Shown: positions 40,234 through 46,722 of the stretch, one piece after another
How positions within the stretch are numbered: position 1 is the stretch's first letter
How the letters are laid out: the number at the start of each line of letters is the position of its first letter
Assembly: GCA_044868695.1 (NCBI GenBank)
Contig: JBIOWP010000053.1
Span: 35,103-99,102, forward strand
Reading direction: 5' to 3'
Source: a bacterium
Lineage (GTDB): Bacteria > Sysuimicrobiota > Sysuimicrobiia > Sysuimicrobiales > Kaftiobacteriaceae
Length of the DNA: 64,000 nucleotides
The notes under the pieces: model-generated
Database searches by the model: none
The model's input: only the letters and a program-made list of their open reading frames with translations
What the model was told of the DNA's origin: nothing
Program-made: the position numbers and the translations under genes

Positions 40234-40440
40234 ATGGCAACGGGCACGGTCAAGTGGTTCAATGCCGAGAAGGGGTACGGATTCATCACGCCCGACGACG
40301 GCGGCAGGGACTTGTTCGTGCATTACACGGGCATCGAGGGTACCGGTTACCGGACATTGAGCGAGGGTCAGAAGGTCGAGTACGAGGCGACGCAGGGACA
40401 GAAGGGCCCCCAGGCCACGAAGGTCCGCCCCATCGCCTAG
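40234..40440 (+). CDS. Cold-shock protein (CspA family)
   Basis: [18 protein letters not shown]...DLFVHY...KGPQATKV. Confidence 0.97.
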
Positions 40441-40467
40441 CCCCGCCTGCTGCGTTCTAGCGCTCTT

Positions 40468-40509
40468 GGCGCCCCGCGGTCCGACTCCAGGATCCGCGGG
40501 GTCGTTTTT
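40468..40509 (+). terminator. Probable intrinsic terminator of csp
   Basis: CCCCGCGG...CCGCGGGG stem followed by TCGTTTTT. Confidence 0.65.
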
Positions 40510-40525
40510 CCCCACACCCTTGTTC

Positions 40526-40545
40526 GATGACTCATTTGAGTCATC
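40526..40545. promoter_or_regulatory. Perfect palindrome, candidate operator
   Basis: GATGACTCA-TT-TGAGTCATC in AT-rich intergenic DNA upstream of the propeptide/TPR operon. Confidence 0.55.
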
Positions 40546-40636
40546 TCCGGCGGATTTCATTTCTAGTGAATATGAGGAGAGGATATTCAGTCCATGTGAC
40601 GAACACCAGAACCGGGAGGGCGAGAGGAGGCTCTCC

Positions 40637-40768
40637 ATGCGAAAGGTCGTTGCGGTGCTGTTGCTTGCGGTGGTCTTCCCGTGGATCCAGCCGTCGGTGT
40701 CGGGTGCGGCACCGGCGGGGCGGGCGGGTGCCGAGCCTGCCGGACACGGAGGCGGCGAACTCCTCTAA
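40637..40768 (+). CDS. 43-aa secreted peptide, candidate RRNPP-type propeptide
   Basis: GAGGAGG RBS; MRKVVAVLLLAVVFPWIQPSVSGAAPAGRAGAEPAGHGGGELL; basic N-terminus, hydrophobic core, short polar tail; adjacent to HTH-TPR gene. Confidence 0.7.
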   Translation: MRKVVAVLLLAVVFPWIQPSVSGAAPAGRAGAEPAGHGGGELL

Positions 40769-40830
40769 GAGGGCGCATGCGGCTGCGAAAGGACCGCCGG
40801 CGGCGGGGATCCGCGGCGGTGGAGGGCACT

Positions 40831-42123
40831 GTGACGCTGGGGCAGCGGATCAAGGCGGCGCGTCGGACGCGCGGCATGACCCAGCGTGAGCTTGCCTCCG
40901 GGGAGTGCTCGATCAGCCTCATCAGCATGGTCGAGCACGGCCGGGTCCGTCCATCGTTGTCCATGCTGCGCATGCTGGCCGAGCGGCTGGGTCTGCCGCT
41001 CAGCCACTTTCTCGATGGCGAGGGCACGCCGGCTCCTGCGCTCCTGCTCCAGCGGGCCGAGGCGCTGCTGCGGCAACACAGGTTCGCCGAGGCGCTGGAG
41101 GCGTTCGAGGGGGCGCGGACCGGGGGAGATAGTCTCCATCAGGCGCGCTGCGAGCTGGGGATGGGCCAAGCCCTGGCCGGCCTCCGGCGCTTTGAAGGTG
41201 CTGCGCGGCACCTAGCTCGGGCGGCGGAGGTGGCCTCGTCGTCGCACGACCCTGAGCTCATCGCCTCGGTCGCCAATGCCCAGGGATTTTTCGCGTTTCG
41301 CGCGCGGCGCTTTGCGGCGGCGCAGGAATTGTTTGAAGACGCGCTCATCCGACTGCGTGCGGCCGGGCTGCAGCAGACGGAGGTCTACGGCAAGCTGCTG
41401 GCCAACGCCGGCCGCGCCGCGATCGAGCTCGGTCTCCCCGCTCAGGCGCTGGAGTATTTCAGGCAGGCGTCCGACACGCTGGCCGCCGCGGCCGATCCCT
41501 ACCATCTCGGGCTGCTGTACTACAACCTGGGTGTGGCCTGGGAGCAGCAGCAGTCGTTTGAGCGCGCCCACGAATCTCTGCAAAAGGCCGCCCATCTGTT
41601 CATGGTACACGAGAACGCGCGGCTGCTGGGAATGGTGAAACGTAGCCTCGGGATGCTGCACCTCGAGCACGGCGCAGTCGACGCCGCTCGCAGTGCGCTC
41701 GAGGAAAGCCTCCGGCTGGCGGGTCAGAGCGGCGATGACGAAGGGACGGCCCAGACACTCGTGGAGATCGCCCGGCTGCGCGTCCGCGAGGGAGACGCGG
41801 CTGCCGCCGAGCGCGCGGCGTCTGAAGCCGAAGCGCTGGCCCTTCGGATTCATGATGATGCGGAAGTGGCACGGGCCAAGGCAGCGCTGGCGGAGGCGCT
41901 GGCCGCCTCAGGTCGTGCCCACGACGCCGTCGCGAGCTACGAGGACGCCGTGGCGGCATTCTCTCACTTGGGGATGACCGGTGAGGCGATCCGGGTGAGC
42001 CGCGACCTCGGGTTCCTCCTGCTGAAGGAGGGCACCCCCGACCGCGCGGCCCACTGGTTTGCCCGGGCATTTGACCTGCAGCGCGGAAGACCGGACGGCC
42101 GGTTGGCCGGTGAGAGAGGATGA
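40831..42123 (+). CDS. XRE-HTH + tetratricopeptide-repeat transcriptional regulator (RRNPP/NprR-like architecture)
   Basis: LGQRIKAARRTRGMTQRELA...ISMVEHGRVRPSL; multiple TPRs (e.g. LYYNLGVAWEQQQSFERA); start may be ATG 40777. Confidence 0.85.
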   Translation: MTLGQRIKAARRTRGMTQRELASGECSISLISMVEHGRVRPSLSMLRMLAERLGLPLSHFLDGEGTPAPALLLQRAEALLRQHRFAEALEAFEGARTGGDSLHQARCELGMGQALAGLRRFEGAARHLARAAEVASSSHDPELIASVANAQGFFAFRARRFAAAQELFEDALIRLRAAGLQQTEVYGKLLANAGRAAIELGLPAQALEYFRQASDTLAAAADPYHLGLLYYNLGVAWEQQQSFERAHESLQKAAHLFMVHENARLLGMVKRSLGMLHLEHGAVDAARSALEESLRLAGQSGDDEGTAQTLVEIARLRVREGDAAAAERAASEAEALALRIHDDAEVARAKAALAEALAASGRAHDAVASYEDAVAAFSHLGMTGEAIRVSRDLGFLLLKEGTPDRAAHWFARAFDLQRGRPDGRLAGERG

Positions 42124-42527
42124 CACAATCCGCACGCGGGACCGCGGAGGCGCCTGGGGACCCCCGCGATCCACGCGGTGTGCAGTCGCTGATGCGGGTG
42201 ACCGCCGGCGCCGCCTCAGGCGGACCGCCGATTCGCCTGCGCGTGGCGCGCGGGCGGGTCGAGGAAGTGCTGTGCGAAGTCGACCTGGACGGAGTCCGCT
42301 ACACGCTGCTGCGGGTGCGGCCGCAGGGGTCGGCGATCGGTCTCAGCCGCCGCGAGCGGGAGGTGGCCTCGCTGGTTGCCGCGGGGCTACCGACCAAGGC
42401 GATCGCCAGAGCGCTGTCGATCAGTGCCTGGACGGTATGCTCGCACCTGCGCCGCGTCTACGCCCGCCTCGGCGTCGGGTCCCGGGCGGCCATGGTGGCT
42501 AGATTACTCGAAGAGGGTCTCTTGTAG
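42120..42527 (+). CDS. LuxR-type HTH regulator without receiver domain
   Basis: LSRREREVASLVAAGLPTKAIARALSISAWTVCSHLRRVYARLGVGSR. Confidence 0.85.
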   Translation: MTQSARGTAEAPGDPRDPRGVQSLMRVTAGAASGGPPIRLRVARGRVEEVLCEVDLDGVRYTLLRVRPQGSAIGLSRREREVASLVAAGLPTKAIARALSISAWTVCSHLRRVYARLGVGSRAAMVARLLEEGLL

Positions 42528-42563
42528 GAATCCCTCGACAACGGGAAACGCGCGGGCCAAGGG

Positions 42564-42641
42564 ATTGCGAATTGTGAATTGACAATTGCGGATTGAACTT
42601 CAGGGTTTCAAATTCGCAATCGTCAATTCGCAATCCGAAAT
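42564..42641. repeat. Inverted array of 7-bp tandem repeats (ATTGCGA/TCGCAAT type)
   Basis: ATTGCGA ATTGTGA ATTGACA ATTGCGG ... TCGCAAT CGTCAAT TCGCAAT CCGAAAT between convergent genes. Confidence 0.85.
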
Positions 42642-42644
42642 GGT

Positions 42645-43544
42645 CTAGTGGAGCTTCTGGTCGCGCGCGCCCGGCACATCGCAGTACCAGGCGGCCAGGC
42701 GGGCAAAGGACAGGATCGGCGGCAGCGAGGCGCGGATGGAGGCGGCGATGCGCTCCGGCGCCGCCAGCCCGCTGCCGGTGAGCAGCTGCCACCGTGACTC
42801 CACCGCCGCGCCGAGGTGCAGGGCCAGTTCCATCGTCACCAGGTTTGCGTCGACCAGGGGCACGAAGACCTCCCACCGCCGGCTGGGCCGCGGGATGTCG
42901 AAGATGTTGAGCATCGCCTTCGCGATGCCCGTGGCGGCGCCGGCGGCGTTGGCGAACCAGCCAATGATCTGCCCCAGCGACTCCGGATCATGCCCCGCCG
43001 CGTCGGCGTTGCGGGTCGCGGCCTCCAGGACCGCCGAGGAGGCCAGGATGCGCGCCAGCCGCCACCCGATGCGGACGGGATCGAGCGGCCGGGGAGGCTG
43101 AGGCAGCACAAAACCCGGGCTGCCGGGCAGGCCGGGGCCGAGGTTGCGTGCCTGTTGGATGGCTTCCTTCGCATCCTCGAGAATCGACGCCTTCTCGTGA
43201 TCCATCCGGGCGGCCGCCAGCGCACGGAACGCGTCCGCCGCTTCGGGGTGATTCGTGACGATCGGCTGCGCGCCGGTCAGGATCTCGTGAATCACCGGCA
43301 GGATGTGCGTGTTCAGCGCAAACGGCATCAGGATCCCCGGCGCATCGTCCAGCGGATTCGCGCCGCCCAGCCGCTCCAAATAGTCGGTCATCTCATCTTC
43401 GGTGAGGCGGTCTAAGAACAGCAGCGCGATTTCGATGTCGCTGTCTGCCCAGGTGCGCTCGTCGGCGTACTTCCCGTACAGGTACACGGCGGCGACGTCG
43501 GGTTCATGGGCGAAAAAGGCCTTGAGAGCAGAGAAGGCGCTCAC
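42645..43544 (-). CDS. Fusion of minimal nucleotidyltransferase-like and DUF86/HEPN-like domains, both with degenerate catalytic motifs
   Basis: VAAVYLYGKYA......SDIEIALL (cf. FGS.A......SD.D.A); C-terminal IPRPSRRWEVF..L.....ELALHLGAAVESRWQLLT resembles DUF86. Confidence 0.6.
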   Translation of the reverse strand: MSAFSALKAFFAHEPDVAAVYLYGKYADERTWADSDIEIALLFLDRLTEDEMTDYLERLGGANPLDDAPGILMPFALNTHILPVIHEILTGAQPIVTNHPEAADAFRALAAARMDHEKASILEDAKEAIQQARNLGPGLPGSPGFVLPQPPRPLDPVRIGWRLARILASSAVLEAATRNADAAGHDPESLGQIIGWFANAAGAATGIAKAMLNIFDIPRPSRRWEVFVPLVDANLVTMELALHLGAAVESRWQLLTGSGLAAPERIAASIRASLPPILSFARLAAWYCDVPGARDQKLH

Positions 43545-43603: not shown

Positions 43604-44017
43604 TCATTCCGCGCTCATGCGCGGGAGACTCTCCCGGACGGCGGCGAGCAGTTCCATCGGGTTGAACGGCTTGGTCAGGATGCGGTCGGCTCCGGACTGC
43701 TGCGCGCGGGTCAGCATCTGCGGGGTCCCGAACCCCGTGATCAGCACCACCCGGATCGCCGGGAGTTTGGCCTTGGCATGCTCGAGCACCTCGAGGCCGG
43801 AGATCCCGGGCATGCGGATGTCGGAGATCATCAGATCGAACGCATCCTGCTGTAGCCTGACAAGCGCGTCCTCCCCGCTGGGCGCGGTCGTGACGGTGTA
43901 TCCGGCGCGGGTCAACACCCGGGCGCACAGGTCGCGGATCGACTCTTCGTCGTCAACGACCAGGATGCGCGCGGCAGCCACTCTGGAGGGCTGCGCCGAC
44001 TGCACGGGGCCGTTCAT
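43604..44017 (-). CDS. Single-domain response regulator (REC)
   Basis: [24 protein letters not shown]. Confidence 0.92.
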
Positions 44018-45966
44018 GCGTGGGCCACCGGCAGGGTGATGGTGAAGCGCGTCCCCCGGCCGGGCGCGCTGTTGACCGCGATCGACCCACCGTGCCGCTC
44101 CACGATGCGCTTGCTGATCGGCAGGCCGAGCCCCGTACCTTTGCCGTCCTCCTTCGTGGTGAAGAACGGATCGAAGATGCGGTCGAGCTGTTCCGTCGGG
44201 ATGCCGACGCCGGTGTCCTGGAAGGCGATCTCGACCCGCGGGCCGGTCCCGTTGCCGCCGACCTCGCGGGTGGTGATTTCAACGGCACCGCCATCCGGCA
44301 TCGCATCGATGGCGTTGTTGAGGATGTTGATGAACACCTGTTTGAGCTGGTTGAGGTCGCCCATGATCTGGCGGACCGAGGGATCCAGCTTCGACGCGAT
44401 GCTGACGTTCTGGGTCTCTGCCCGGCGGCGGATCAGCGGCAGCACGCTTTCGATGGCCTCGTTGATGTGGGTCTGCTCCATCGCCGAGTCGGTCTGGCGA
44501 GCGTAGCCCAGCAGGTCGCGCACGATGGCGCGCGCGCGCAGGGCTTCCTTTTCGATGACTTCCAGGTCGGCCCGTTTGGTATCGTCCGCCGCGGTTTCGC
44601 TGAGGATAAGGGAGGCGTAGCCCAACACGCTGGTCAGCGGGTTGTTGATCTCGTGCGCGATGAACGCCGCGAGTTCGCCGATCGTGGCCAGCTTGGCGGA
44701 CTGCATCAACTGGAACTGCGTTTGCTCCAGCATCGCCATCTGCCGCTGGAGGTTGCTGAACAGCTGCGCCTTCTCCACCGCCACCGCTGCCTGGCTGGCC
44801 ATGGTGGACAGCAGGTTCGTCTCCTGAGGGGACAGCACCTGGCGTGTCCCGACGATGACCAGACCCACCGCTCGCTCGCCGACCGCCATGGGGATGGCCA
44901 CCACCATGGTGTCGTAGCGCAGCGGGCCGTATTGGGTCAGCTGGGTGATTTCCTCGGTGTGCTCTGCCTGCCGGTAGACCTGCGGTCCCCGCAACTGGAG
45001 CAGGCGGCGGAGGGCAGGATCCGCGGCGCTCCGCTGAAACGGCGGAAACTCCTCTTCCGCGGTGCGCCACAGCCCGAACTCGATCGTGTCCGTGGCAGGG
45101 CTGTAGACGCCGACCCCAACCACGTCGACCGAGGGGATCTTGCGCACCTGGGCGTGCAGCGCGTCGTACACCTGCGCCAGGTCCAGGCTGCTGGTGAGCG
45201 CCCGCGCCAGTTCATTCAGGCTGGCCAGTTGCTGTGCCCGGCCCTCGGCCTCCTGCTTGCTGCGCTGGATGCGCTCGGCGTCCTCGATCTGCATGCGCAG
45301 CATCTGGGAGAGGCCGATCAGCGGGAGCATCAACAGCACCGTGCGCCAGGGGTTGACGATCCAGAAGTCTGCCACCACCGCGCCCAGCCAGATCAGCACC
45401 ATCTCCCGGTAGAAGCTCGACCGCGAGATGACCCCAACTTGCCCAAAGGGCTTGTTGGCGGCGAGGGTGATGGCGAGCGTGACCAGCGCGCCGTTCACAG
45501 CGTAGAAGATTGTGCCGGCGAGGAATGCCGCCGCATACCACTGGATTGCCAGGACGCCTTCGGCTGCGGCCGGCCGGGTCAGTGTCCAGACCGCCTCGGC
45601 CATCGCGACGGAGAGGATGTGCTGGGCGATGTTGAACGCCCCCTGGTACCAGGGCAGTTCGCGCCGCTTGAACCAGTACGCGGAGAAGGTGATGAGGACG
45701 AGGACAATGGTGTTTCCAATGGGGAACAGCAGAATGGTGGCGACGATGACGGCGTTGATCAGCGACCAGGCGATGCCCTGGCGGCCGGGCATGATGACCC
45801 GGACGCCGACCAGCTGGGTGAGGAGCGCCGTGCCGATGAAGACGAAGAAGGGCAGGTCCAGCCGCGCCGCCGCCCCCGGGAGCTGCGGCAGCACCGCCGC
45901 GAGGACGCCGCCGGCGATGATGACGCCGAGGACGTAAATCCGGGCTGGCAGAGAAAGGTTTTTCAT
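44014..45966 (-). CDS. Sensor histidine kinase with multi-TM N-terminal sensor and GAF domain (NtrB-like transmitter)
   Basis: About 7 TM segments in first 220 aa; [45 protein letters not shown]. Confidence 0.92.
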
Positions 45967-46051
45967 CGGTGTACCATCATGAACGCAAATGGCCCGGGGG
46001 CCGCCCGGTCAGACCCGGCGGCCGCCGGGATGGACTCCGAGATTAGATTAG

Positions 46052-46077
46052 CCCCTGGCGGGGTGGCCCGCCAGGGG
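46052..46077 (-). terminator. Stem-loop right after peptide gene 2 (attenuator or mRNA stabiliser)
   Basis: CCCCTGGCGGG-GTGG-CCCGCCAGGGG 11-bp stem; no clear U-tract. Confidence 0.5.
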
Positions 46078-46084
46078 GCGCGGT

Positions 46085-46234
46085 CTACTCCCAGGCTTCG
46101 CTGGCTGCGTCGAACATTTCCCAGGTCGCCGACTCCCAGGTCGCTGACTCCCAGGTGGCGGAGCCCCAGGATACCGATGCCGCCGCGAACATCGCGAGTG
46201 CGAACGTGACTGCGGCGGCCAGAATCTTTCTCAT
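46085..46234 (-). CDS. 49-aa secreted SATWE-repeat peptide, copy 2
   Basis: GGGAGGG RBS; MRKILAAAVTFALAMFAAA-SVSWG-SATWE-SATWE-SATWE-MFDAA-SEAWE. Confidence 0.88.
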   Translation of the reverse strand: MRKILAAAVTFALAMFAAASVSWGSATWESATWESATWEMFDAASEAWE

Positions 46235-46282
46235 CGTCGATCCCTCCCGTGGGTCGAATCGCGTTGCTACCCATAGAATGGA

Positions 46283-46297
46283 GCAAGATTGGTGCCA
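46283..46297 (-). promoter_or_regulatory. Sigma54 -24/-12 promoter for peptide copy 2 and kinase operon
   Basis: TGGCAC-CAATC-TTGC on minus strand. Confidence 0.85.
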
Positions 46298-46395
46298 CAA
46301 CGCCCGGGAAATGCCCACTTTCAAGAAGCTTCCGAGAATTGTTATGCCCGAATCTGAGGGGGTCGAGCGCGGGACCAGGGGGGCCGGCCGGACAA

Positions 46396-46430
46396 CACGA
46401 CGAGGGGGTCCGGTGGACCCCCTCGTCGTG
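46396..46430 (-). terminator. Perfect 16-bp stem-loop after peptide gene 1
   Basis: CACGACGAGGGGGTCC-GGT-GGACCCCCTCGTCGTG. Confidence 0.6.
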
Positions 46431-46460
46431 ACATGCGTGATGTCTCAGACCTTCGGCGAT

Positions 46461-46610
46461 CTACTCCCAGGCTTCGCTGGCTGCGTCGAACATTTCCCAG
46501 GTCGCCGACTCCCAGGTCGCGGACTCCCAGGTGGCGGAGCCCCACGACACGGAGCTGGCAGCGGCCAGCATCAGGATCGAGAGCGCGAAGGCGGCAATGA
46601 CTTTCCGCAT
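46461..46610 (-). CDS. 49-aa secreted SATWE-repeat peptide, copy 1
   Basis: GAGGAG RBS; MRKVIAAFALSILMLAAAS-SVSWG-SATWE-SATWE-SATWE-MFDAA-SEAWE. Confidence 0.88.
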   Translation of the reverse strand: MRKVIAAFALSILMLAAASSVSWGSATWESATWESATWEMFDAASEAWE

Positions 46611-46722
46611 TGATTTACTCCTCTTTTTCGCGGGATAGACCCGCCATCTCGCCGGTGAGGAACCGCATGAATGCTGCCTTCCGAATCGAGATGTCAATCG
46701 GTCTCCACAAGACGGCTCGCTG

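Follow-up and report, generated by a model that had tools for sequence, protein, structure and literature searches.

Within a 64,000-nt stretch of DNA from a bacterium of the phylum Sysuimicrobiota (contig JBIOWP010000053.1; the whole stretch is referred to below as the window), we describe a cassette of three genes on the + strand that encode, in order, a 43-aa propeptide with a signal-peptide-like N-terminus (40637-40768), a cytoplasmic protein composed of an XRE-type helix-turn-helix (HTH) domain and about nine tetratricopeptide repeats (TPRs) (40831-42123, or from 40777; hereafter the receptor), and a 135-aa LuxR/GerE-type HTH protein (42120-42527) that presumably serves as output regulator or as binding partner. 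On the basis of comparative sequence analysis we consider it fairly probable that the cassette specifies an RRNPP-like signalling circuit, i.e. one in which a re-imported peptide would drive positive feedback and a LuxR-type output, and that this circuit is native to the Sysuimicrobiota and conserved within them. The three-gene layout is as described in a first-pass annotation of the same DNA, with which the coordinates, the Pfam matches and the overlap of the LuxR-type ATG with the receptor TGA as ATGA (translational coupling) all agree.

A conserved octapeptide beside an HTH-TPR gene

A profile derived from 23 homologues was used to collect related loci from a set of species-representative genomes, which yielded 37 true loci. 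In 36 of these a small open reading frame (ORF) of 36-88 aa lies on the same strand, 6-150 nt 5' of the receptor gene, and in the remaining one (L029) the small ORF is cut by a contig end, with at least five nine-residue repeats still readable. The small secreted ORF, whose absence beside receptor homologues the first-pass annotation had named as the observation that would tell against its reading, has a counterpart in 37 of 37 loci. All 36 complete small ORFs satisfy a simple heuristic for signal peptides (Lys or Arg within the first 7 residues and a 10-residue Kyte-Doolittle window >2.0). In the case of the window, the propeptide has Arg-Lys at positions 2-3 with a hydrophobic run after them and carries at its tail end the sequence GHGGGELL (residues 36-43; 40742-40765, + strand), the presumed mature signal; its gene is preceded by a Shine-Dalgarno sequence GGAGG (40626-40630, + strand), which lies 6 nt 5' of the ATG at 40637.

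The part that the propeptides have in common across the loci is an octapeptide, almost always with an Ala just before it. GHGGGELL is found in 15 copies that are written in 14 distinct 24-nt versions, with synonymous variation at seven of the eight codons, and the variant GHGDGELL is found in 15 copies written in 11 nucleotide versions. The occurrence of the same octapeptide in so many nucleotide versions is direct evidence both of translation and of purifying selection, and the peptide core is under strong purifying selection. Over the propeptide genes of 11 same-length locus pairs (a 12th pair, of unequal length, was excluded) codon positions 1, 2 and 3 carry 72, 83 and 124 differences, respectively. 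Since the small ORF is conserved next to the receptor across related loci and its core varies synonymously, a chance origin of the 43-aa frame is rejected.

The residues that the first-pass annotation had singled out were different ones: it took AEPAGHG as the key stretch and likened it to the QspB peptide of Clostridium acetobutylicum, given as AEPTGWG. The AEPA part is not conserved in the relatives, where GHGGGELL is the conserved core, and AEP, the only letters that the window tail shares with the QspB peptide, is not conserved there either. Because the published active peptide of QspB reads AEPTWGW (PMC7376267), the claimed resemblance fails and was dropped. What QsrB-QspB does have in common with the cassette is its general make-up, namely a pair of RRNPP type in which a small precursor holds a short active peptide either internally or at its end (PMC7376267).

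The number and position of the cores differ between precursors. In 15 of the 37 loci the core occurs in tandem, in 2 to 5 or more copies with short, unconserved spacers between them, which implies that the conserved unit is a peptide some 8-9 residues long whose release would require proteolysis. Several pheromone copies per propeptide are known in Rap, NprR, PlcR and AimR systems (PMC9765709; PMC11343458). In 16 of the 37 loci the hydrophobic run ends in an A-x-A/S-type site and the core starts immediately behind it, so that signal peptidase alone would expose its N-terminus and the C-terminal tail would need trimming. In the window and its nearest relatives (the window subclade) the core forms the C-terminus of the precursor, and there the N-terminal spacer would have to come off.

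These features also bear on an alternative in which the exported peptide has an extracytoplasmic job of its own, such as binding of metal or calcium or a role in the envelope, and in which the HTH-TPR protein regulates the peptide while sensing something else. Such a job could account for a core that is rich in Gly, His and Asp and unusually invariant over deep divergence, as well as for the loose likeness of some 9-residue units to the calcium-binding RTX nonapeptides (as we take the RTX consensus to read); moreover, in a probable diderm the product would stay in the periplasm unless the outer membrane is crossed. On the other hand, a unit of about eight residues that occurs singly or in many copies, at varied positions of the precursor and among unconserved spacers, agrees better with a released peptide than with a folded domain, no gene for modification or dedicated transport is conserved next to the peptide gene in the 37 loci, and the partner protein has, in its predicted structure, a peptide-binding fold like that of Rap and NprR. 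An extracytoplasmic job for the peptide therefore seems unlikely to us, and we continue with the reading of the core as a signal.

In a quick maximum-likelihood tree (IQ-TREE; 38 receptors with two own-genome paralogues as outgroup; support by the Shimodaira-Hasegawa-like approximate likelihood ratio test, SH-aLRT, only), the receptors fall into three clades that match three motif families. One clade of 16 rows (support 100) has the core GHGG[GA]ELL, which reads exactly GHGGGELL in 14 of them, and a second clade of 14 rows (support 100) has GHGDGELL and variants of it, mostly in multiple copies. The third group consists of 8 rows with single-copy cores of the type G-[RSHP]-[GP]-D-x-D-[SF]-[FY]; 7 of these rows cluster (support 98), and one (L040) branches apart at an unresolved fork.

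The phylum also holds more distant, paralogous receptors, of which 22 were considered; these are 29-34% identical to the window receptor (identity over the aligned parts, for those with a tblastn value). For 14 of the 22, a signal-peptide ORF of their own lies upstream of the receptor gene and encodes another Gly-rich core; several such cores are doubled. Such paralogue-specific cores are more telling than the agreement between clades and motifs.

Some of the paralogous and related loci have peculiarities of their own. At L055 (contig C17 of genome G069) the precursor gene 5' of the receptor copy at 770970-772259 encodes 170 aa with a signal-peptide-like start and eight copies of an 18-residue unit. 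An array of the same type at L054 shifts frame, for which an assembly error in the repeats is possible; two receptor copies lie 7-9 kb apart at L054/L055, with an array beside only one of them. The host genome itself contains, on contig C99 (L002), an HTH-TPR gene whose product is 28% identical to the window receptor, and the frame 5' of it (2757-2962, - strand) runs off the contig end and holds a Gly/Asp/Pro-rich core in two copies; this paralogue class has, in other genomes, complete propeptides with a doubled core of the type AGD-x-x-PG. The other own-genome paralogue, on contig C14, has no upstream signal-peptide ORF. As judged by eye, five loci of the GHGDGELL clade (L013, L031, L033, L035 and L039) carry a second HTH-TPR gene, of another subfamily, convergent to the cassette, and three other loci have a patatin-like gene 3' of the receptor instead.

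The receptor and its relation to known RRNPP systems

The receptor frame is open from 40681. The ATG at 40777 would yield a protein of 448 aa and a gap of 8 nt to the propeptide gene; the homologues begin at the position of the GTG at 40831, which has GGAGG 5 nt 5' of it and from which the protein would be 430 aa long and the gap 62 nt. Pfam matches comprise HTH_3 (residues 25-77, E 1.4e-8) and HTH_19, with the XRE-type HTH region covering residues 22-83, as well as TPR_12 (E 6.3e-19, five stretches) and TPR_2 (E 5.5e-15). The protein has no hydrophobic segment (the maximal 19-residue Kyte-Doolittle value is 0.89). Its AlphaFold2 model (predicted local distance difference test, pLDDT, 89.7) has a five-helix HTH region and paired helices over residues 87-436.

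A Foldseek search with this model placed LGN at rank 1 and the PlcR-PapR7-DNA complex at rank 2 (E 7.8e-9). Upon re-ranking with VIA-align, ranks 1-8 were occupied by seven peptide-bound Rap structures and apo NprR (Z 32.0-29.4 over 337-351 residues, root-mean-square deviation (rmsd) 3.4-5.3), and in a search independent of Foldseek, over 48,161 representative chains, the Phi105 Rap with its peptide came out at rank 1 (Z 30.7, rmsd 3.4, 337 of 350 residues). The likeness of the modelled fold to Rap and NprR is suggestive. A complex prediction for receptor residues 84-448 and propeptide residues 14-43 (both supplied as alignments), made without control runs, scored 0.02, the mark being 0.32, and counts neither for nor against binding.

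RRNPP systems have been delineated operationally by five characteristics, namely a propeptide of 10-100 aa, a Sec signal (as called by SignalP), a receptor of 250-500 aa, the presence of TPRs, and a position of the two genes as direct neighbours (PMC10075063). The window propeptide has 43 aa and the 36 complete relatives have 36-88 aa; the Sec signal is found in 36 of 36 complete ORFs by the heuristic given above, which stands in for SignalP; the receptor is 430 or 448 aa long; its TPRs are apparent both from the TPR_12 and TPR_2 matches and from the paired helices of the model; and the two genes, with a 62- or 8-nt gap in the window, are neighbours in 37 of 37 loci. The receptor thus has the five-point RRNPP signature, and its architecture is NprR-like. 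Taken together, the first-pass proposal of an RRNPP-like pair in a non-Firmicute was right in kind, i.e. with respect to the layout, the host, the conserved small ORF and these five characteristics, and wrong with respect to the key residues and the likeness to QspB.

The described systems each resemble the cassette in part. NprR-NprX of the Bacillus cereus group likewise has, side by side, a gene for a Sec-type propeptide and one for a cytoplasmic protein of ~430 aa that joins an N-terminal XRE-type HTH to about 9 TPRs, and the structures align at Z 29.4 (5dbk, 347 residues) and at Z 24.5-26.1 (4gpk). Nevertheless, no sequence relationship was detected beyond generic HTH and TPR, and the Sysuimicrobiota cassette differs in having its peptide gene 5' of the receptor, a coupled LuxR-type gene and a probable diderm, non-Bacillota host. 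The Rap-Phr systems, including those of the phages Phi3T and Phi105, provide the best structural matches over the whole TPR region (Z 30.7-32.0), have propeptides with several copies of the mature peptide (PMC11343458), and also form many paralogous receptor-peptide pairs per lineage; in contrast to the receptor described here, however, Rap is without a DNA-binding domain and works on protein partners, the Phr genes lie downstream, and the systems are restricted to Bacillota and their mobile elements. PlcR-PapR shares the combination of HTH and TPR, a palindromic operator, the second rank in the Foldseek search and a sequence match over the HTH, whereas PlcR is shorter (~285 aa, 5 TPRs) and aligns poorly overall with the window receptor (rmsd 10.8-12.1). 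In ComR-ComS of streptococci both the propeptide gene (feedback) and a single downstream gene for the output regulator are under direct control of the receptor, and the circuit logic that we propose for the Sysuimicrobiota cassette would be identical; yet export of ComS does not involve a Sec signal and the output of that circuit is a sigma factor, whereas here it would be a LuxR-type HTH protein encoded in the same transcription unit.

Upstream elements, downstream genes and the proposed circuit

Between the upstream gene and the propeptide gene lies a composite cis-element (40556-40589, + strand) that consists of a 15-bp inverted repeat TTCA-N7-TGAA (40556-40570) and, 10 nt 3' of it, a box GGATATTCA (40581-40589), after which comes GACGAAC. 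Of 37 upstream regions (those of 36 loci and the window), 22 contain the composite pattern, and most of the other loci hold degenerate versions of it. It has 0 matches in the 544,824 strand-bases of the remaining locus sequence, a single match in the window, and in the 2.59-Mb genome 1 forward and 0 reverse matches, with 0 for the controls. The spacing between repeat start and box start is constant, at 34-35 nt in two of the clades and 25-26 nt in the window subclade. We consider the element a candidate operator plus promoter of the peptide gene, and read the presence of a unique operator-like site at this position as pointing to an autoregulated peptide-receptor-LuxR unit. When the GGAA...CGAA element is read as a promoter of the extracytoplasmic function (ECF) type, its spacing is about 4 nt shorter than what we take to be the ECF consensus. 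The paralogous cassettes of the C99 type have the GGA...CGAA part with equal spacing and do not share the inverted repeat, which, we infer, would fit a common promoter type combined with receptor-specific operators. A scan of 40380-42700 for sigma-70 promoters returned 0 sites, and RNA structure between the peptide and receptor genes is no better than that of shuffled sequence (z 0.22).

On the downstream side, a LuxR-type gene (GerE, E 1.6e-15 in the window) is found 3' of the receptor in 22 of the 37 loci. Most of the 15 loci without a LuxR match belong to the GHGDGELL clade; contig ends truncate two of the 15, and a third contains a weak LuxR-like ORF. Directly N-terminal of their HTH the LuxR-type proteins have a conserved segment.

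In the circuit as we propose it, the 43-aa product would be exported by Sec into the periplasm of the probable diderm, shortened to some 8-9 residues that include GHGGGELL, with Ala just before it, and re-imported by one of the many Opp/Dpp-type importers. The imported peptide would then bind the TPR domain of the cytoplasmic HTH-TPR receptor, which would act at the operator-like element 5' of the peptide gene and thereby exert positive feedback on the peptide-receptor-LuxR unit, and the co-translated LuxR-type protein would pass the output on. With regard to uptake, the host genome has 31 matches above cut-off to SBP_bac_5 (the OppA/DppA family; peptide/nickel binding), none of which adjoins the cassette; from this number it follows that a capacity for peptide import exists in the host, in line with the expansion of peptide uptake reported for the phylum (PMC11962464).

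The output step may take another form. By analogy with Rap, action on the LuxR-type protein, or on the single-domain response receiver encoded nearby (43604-44017), is a serious alternative for this step; carried through, it would mean that the TPR protein acts via such a protein partner, that the peptide releases the partner, and that the receptor's own HTH is secondary. It would be in keeping with Rap being the best structural match (the RapF-ComA and RapH-Spo0F complexes stand at ranks 37 and 39), with the ATGA coupling in the window and a LuxR-type gene downstream in more than half of the loci, with the conserved segment before the HTH of the LuxR-type protein, and with the proximity of the receiver in 11 of the 37 loci. 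However, both the XRE HTH of the receptor, which is intact, and the operator-like element are conserved, and 15 loci, even if two of these are cut short and one has a weak LuxR-like ORF, have no LuxR match that could serve as the partner, for which reasons a mechanism with a secondary HTH appears to us quite improbable.

The receiver is part of a second peptide system that occupies 43604-46613 on the - strand. Two tandem genes (46085-46234 and 46461-46610) for signal-peptide proteins of ~49 aa, each with SATWE repeated three times, lie 5' of a multi-pass GAF histidine kinase (44014-45966), which has several hydrophobic segments in addition to GAF, HisKA and HATPase domains, and of the single-domain receiver. 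Kinase and receiver are syntenic with the cassette in 11 of the 37 loci, and at two of the loci (L009 and L010) the corresponding place by the kinase is taken by a gene in which GATWE is repeated three times. It is conceivable that this membrane kinase, rather than the TPR protein, senses the GHGGGELL peptide outside the cytoplasm, given that it lies with its receiver only 1-3 kb away and that the synteny recurs. The kinase, however, has a repeat-peptide gene pair of its own directly upstream, kept in L009 and L010, and adjacency of peptide and receptor genes in 37 of 37 loci stands against kinase synteny in only 11 of 37; we hold sensing by the kinase to be very improbable.

Several points weigh against our interpretation of the cassette as an RRNPP-like circuit. 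The match between receptor clades and motif families does not show binding or co-evolution, because adjacent genes are inherited together, and 8 of the 22 paralogous receptors show no peptide gene. GHGGGELL is invariant across receptors that are only 47-68% identical to the window receptor; rapid divergence of pherotypes is typical of Rap-Phr systems and is not seen in the GHGGGELL set. As regards the fold, the eukaryotic TPR proteins APPBP2 (Z 29.4) and LGN (Z 28.3-28.6) nearly equal the Rap scores, and with generic TPR proteins within 1-4 Z units of Rap and NprR the fold evidence is not discriminating. At the sequence level, the Pfam and NCBIfam matches of the receptor at E <= 0.01 include no RRNPP-specific family, for which reason we do not file the receptor under any described RRNPP subfamily, and a profile run against PDB sequences meets PlcR over the HTH only (among the best 60 of 110 matches). 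In bacteria with an outer membrane this type of export leads only to the periplasm, so that the loop could close without the peptide leaving the cell. Finally, every sequence in the analysis derives from metagenome-assembled genomes (MAGs).

Between the terminator-like hairpin described below and the composite element lies a perfect 20-bp palindrome (40526-40545; 9-nt arms and a 2-nt spacer) that is only partly kept in the nearest relatives. Palindromes like it (<=2 mismatches) occur 10 times elsewhere in the genome, vs 1 for a control pattern; the sites, which include C84:18347, C87:4033 and C107:57170, lie among others 62-63 nt 5' of recA and ssb, and one lies before a LytTR gene. The palindrome at recA abuts the -35 hexamer. 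Among 40 relatives it is recovered in 1 with <=2 mismatches, in 2 with <=3 and in 4 with <=4, and several relatives hold a palindrome of other sequence at the recA site. A role of the 20-bp palindrome as operator of a regulon is unsupported, since the sequence at the recA site is not conserved in relatives, and the palindrome is as likely to be a hairpin or a small repeat element. The recA gene and the two lexA genes of the host have boxes of the type GAAC-N4-GTTY upstream instead. In most of the 40 genomes the region upstream of recA (L089) shows TTGACA, GAAC-N4-GTTT and a -10-like hexamer (TAGACT in the host), with CAAAC mostly replacing GAAC in one taxonomic family (f5), and each of the two LexA homologues of the host (L094 and L095) has a similar box 5' of its gene.

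The upstream boundary of the cassette is formed by a hairpin with a T-run (40472-40510, + strand), which sits 3' of a cold-shock gene (40237-40440; CSD match, E 3.8e-31). The inverted repeat arms of this terminator-like structure are at 40472-40479 and 40494-40501, and a terminator-like site at 40491-40503 is followed by GTTTTT; the stretch 3' of it is AT-rich relative to the genome, and the three + strand genes come next. Beyond the LuxR-type gene, on the - strand (42645-43544), a 299-aa protein with a Polbeta/MntA-like nucleotidyltransferase N-terminus (E 1.8e-7 and 2.6e-7) is encoded, a gene that is a conserved neighbour, on either strand, in 14 of the 37 loci. Elsewhere in the host genome, contig C109 (L091) carries a gene for a LAGLIDADG endonuclease (1400-2113, E 3.9e-22), probably in an rRNA intron; the sequence before it we take to be 23S rRNA.

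Host, distribution and significance

The host genome is a 2.59-Mb MAG of 162 contigs that is 95% complete and belongs to the Sysuimicrobiota (CSP1-3), the former being the name given to CSP1-3 (PMC11604079). Relatives of the receptor that carry a taxon name were found only in Bacillati bacterium ANGP1, in Armatimonadota/Armatimonadetes (including CSP1-3) and in Candidatus Calidihabitans, Fervidifonticultor and Geohabitans, the latter three being labelled Candidatus Sysuimicrobiota. Omp85/BamA and LpxC are each matched once in the genome, and among the control genomes both families are confined to diderm bacteria; the host cell therefore probably has an outer membrane. Both lines of evidence, i.e. 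the assignment of the relatives to Sysuimicrobiota, CSP1-3, ANGP1 or Armatimonadota and the presence of Omp85 and LpxC, bear out the earlier supposition that the host is not a Firmicute.

At a threshold of E <= 1e-40, which lets paralogues in as well, a family member is present in 78 of the 94 genomes of the phylum, in 43 of the 54 high-quality genomes and in 27 of the 31 genera; one taxonomic family of the phylum has no member in its 12 genomes. The data sets listed as covering 40441-42527 include no RNA set and comprise seven DNA sets, which are soil metagenomes from 3 studies, two of the sets maybe representing the source sample.

RRNPP systems have been described as a trait of the Firmicutes/Bacillota, including their plasmids and phages (PMC10075063, PMC9765709, PMC12700828). 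A literature search that joined RRNPP with Armatimonad* found nothing, one that joined it with "diderm" found only a review of plasmid mobility, and the main text of the two main genomic papers on the phylum does not contain "quorum"; in the literature thus searched we found no prior description of the cassette in Sysuimicrobiota.

Relatives of the receptor may extend further. In Chloroflexota, 14 of 201 sampled genomes contain full-length HTH-TPR relatives (E <= 1e-25) at 16 loci (L069-L084), of which 11 have, no more than 600 nt 5' and on either strand, an ORF of 23-76 aa that combines a charged start with a hydrophobic run, where ~4 would be expected by chance (~0.27 per search window). Such an ORF is retained by both members of L072/L073 and of L083/L084, two pairs of corresponding loci that come from one and the same pair of genomes. 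In some Chloroflexota, hydrophobic mini-ORFs of 26-34 aa adjoin HTH-TPR genes similar to that of the window. Clusters that combine HTH_3 and TPR_12 are also found in Dormibacterota, Chloroflexota and Actinomycetota, and are to be taken as leads only.

As to what the cassette means, it is in our view about an even call that TPR-receptor signalling of the RRNPP type is not exclusive to Bacillota, and that the probably diderm Sysuimicrobiota of soils and hot springs carry a vertically inherited core cassette together with several orthogonal paralogous pairs, with up to 8 or more pheromone copies per precursor. The system would then either be ancient in the Terrabacteria or have emerged twice. For a diderm, the signal may be a readout of processing in the periplasm and of import no less than of cell density. 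If the proposed circuit is real, the known range of genetically encoded peptide signals would widen to a probably diderm, uncultured phylum, and a testable pair, consisting of an 8-9-mer, a soluble receptor and a candidate operator, would become available for organisms that can not yet be grown. It would also bear on the question whether RRNPP-type signalling is ancient in the Terrabacteria or of convergent origin.

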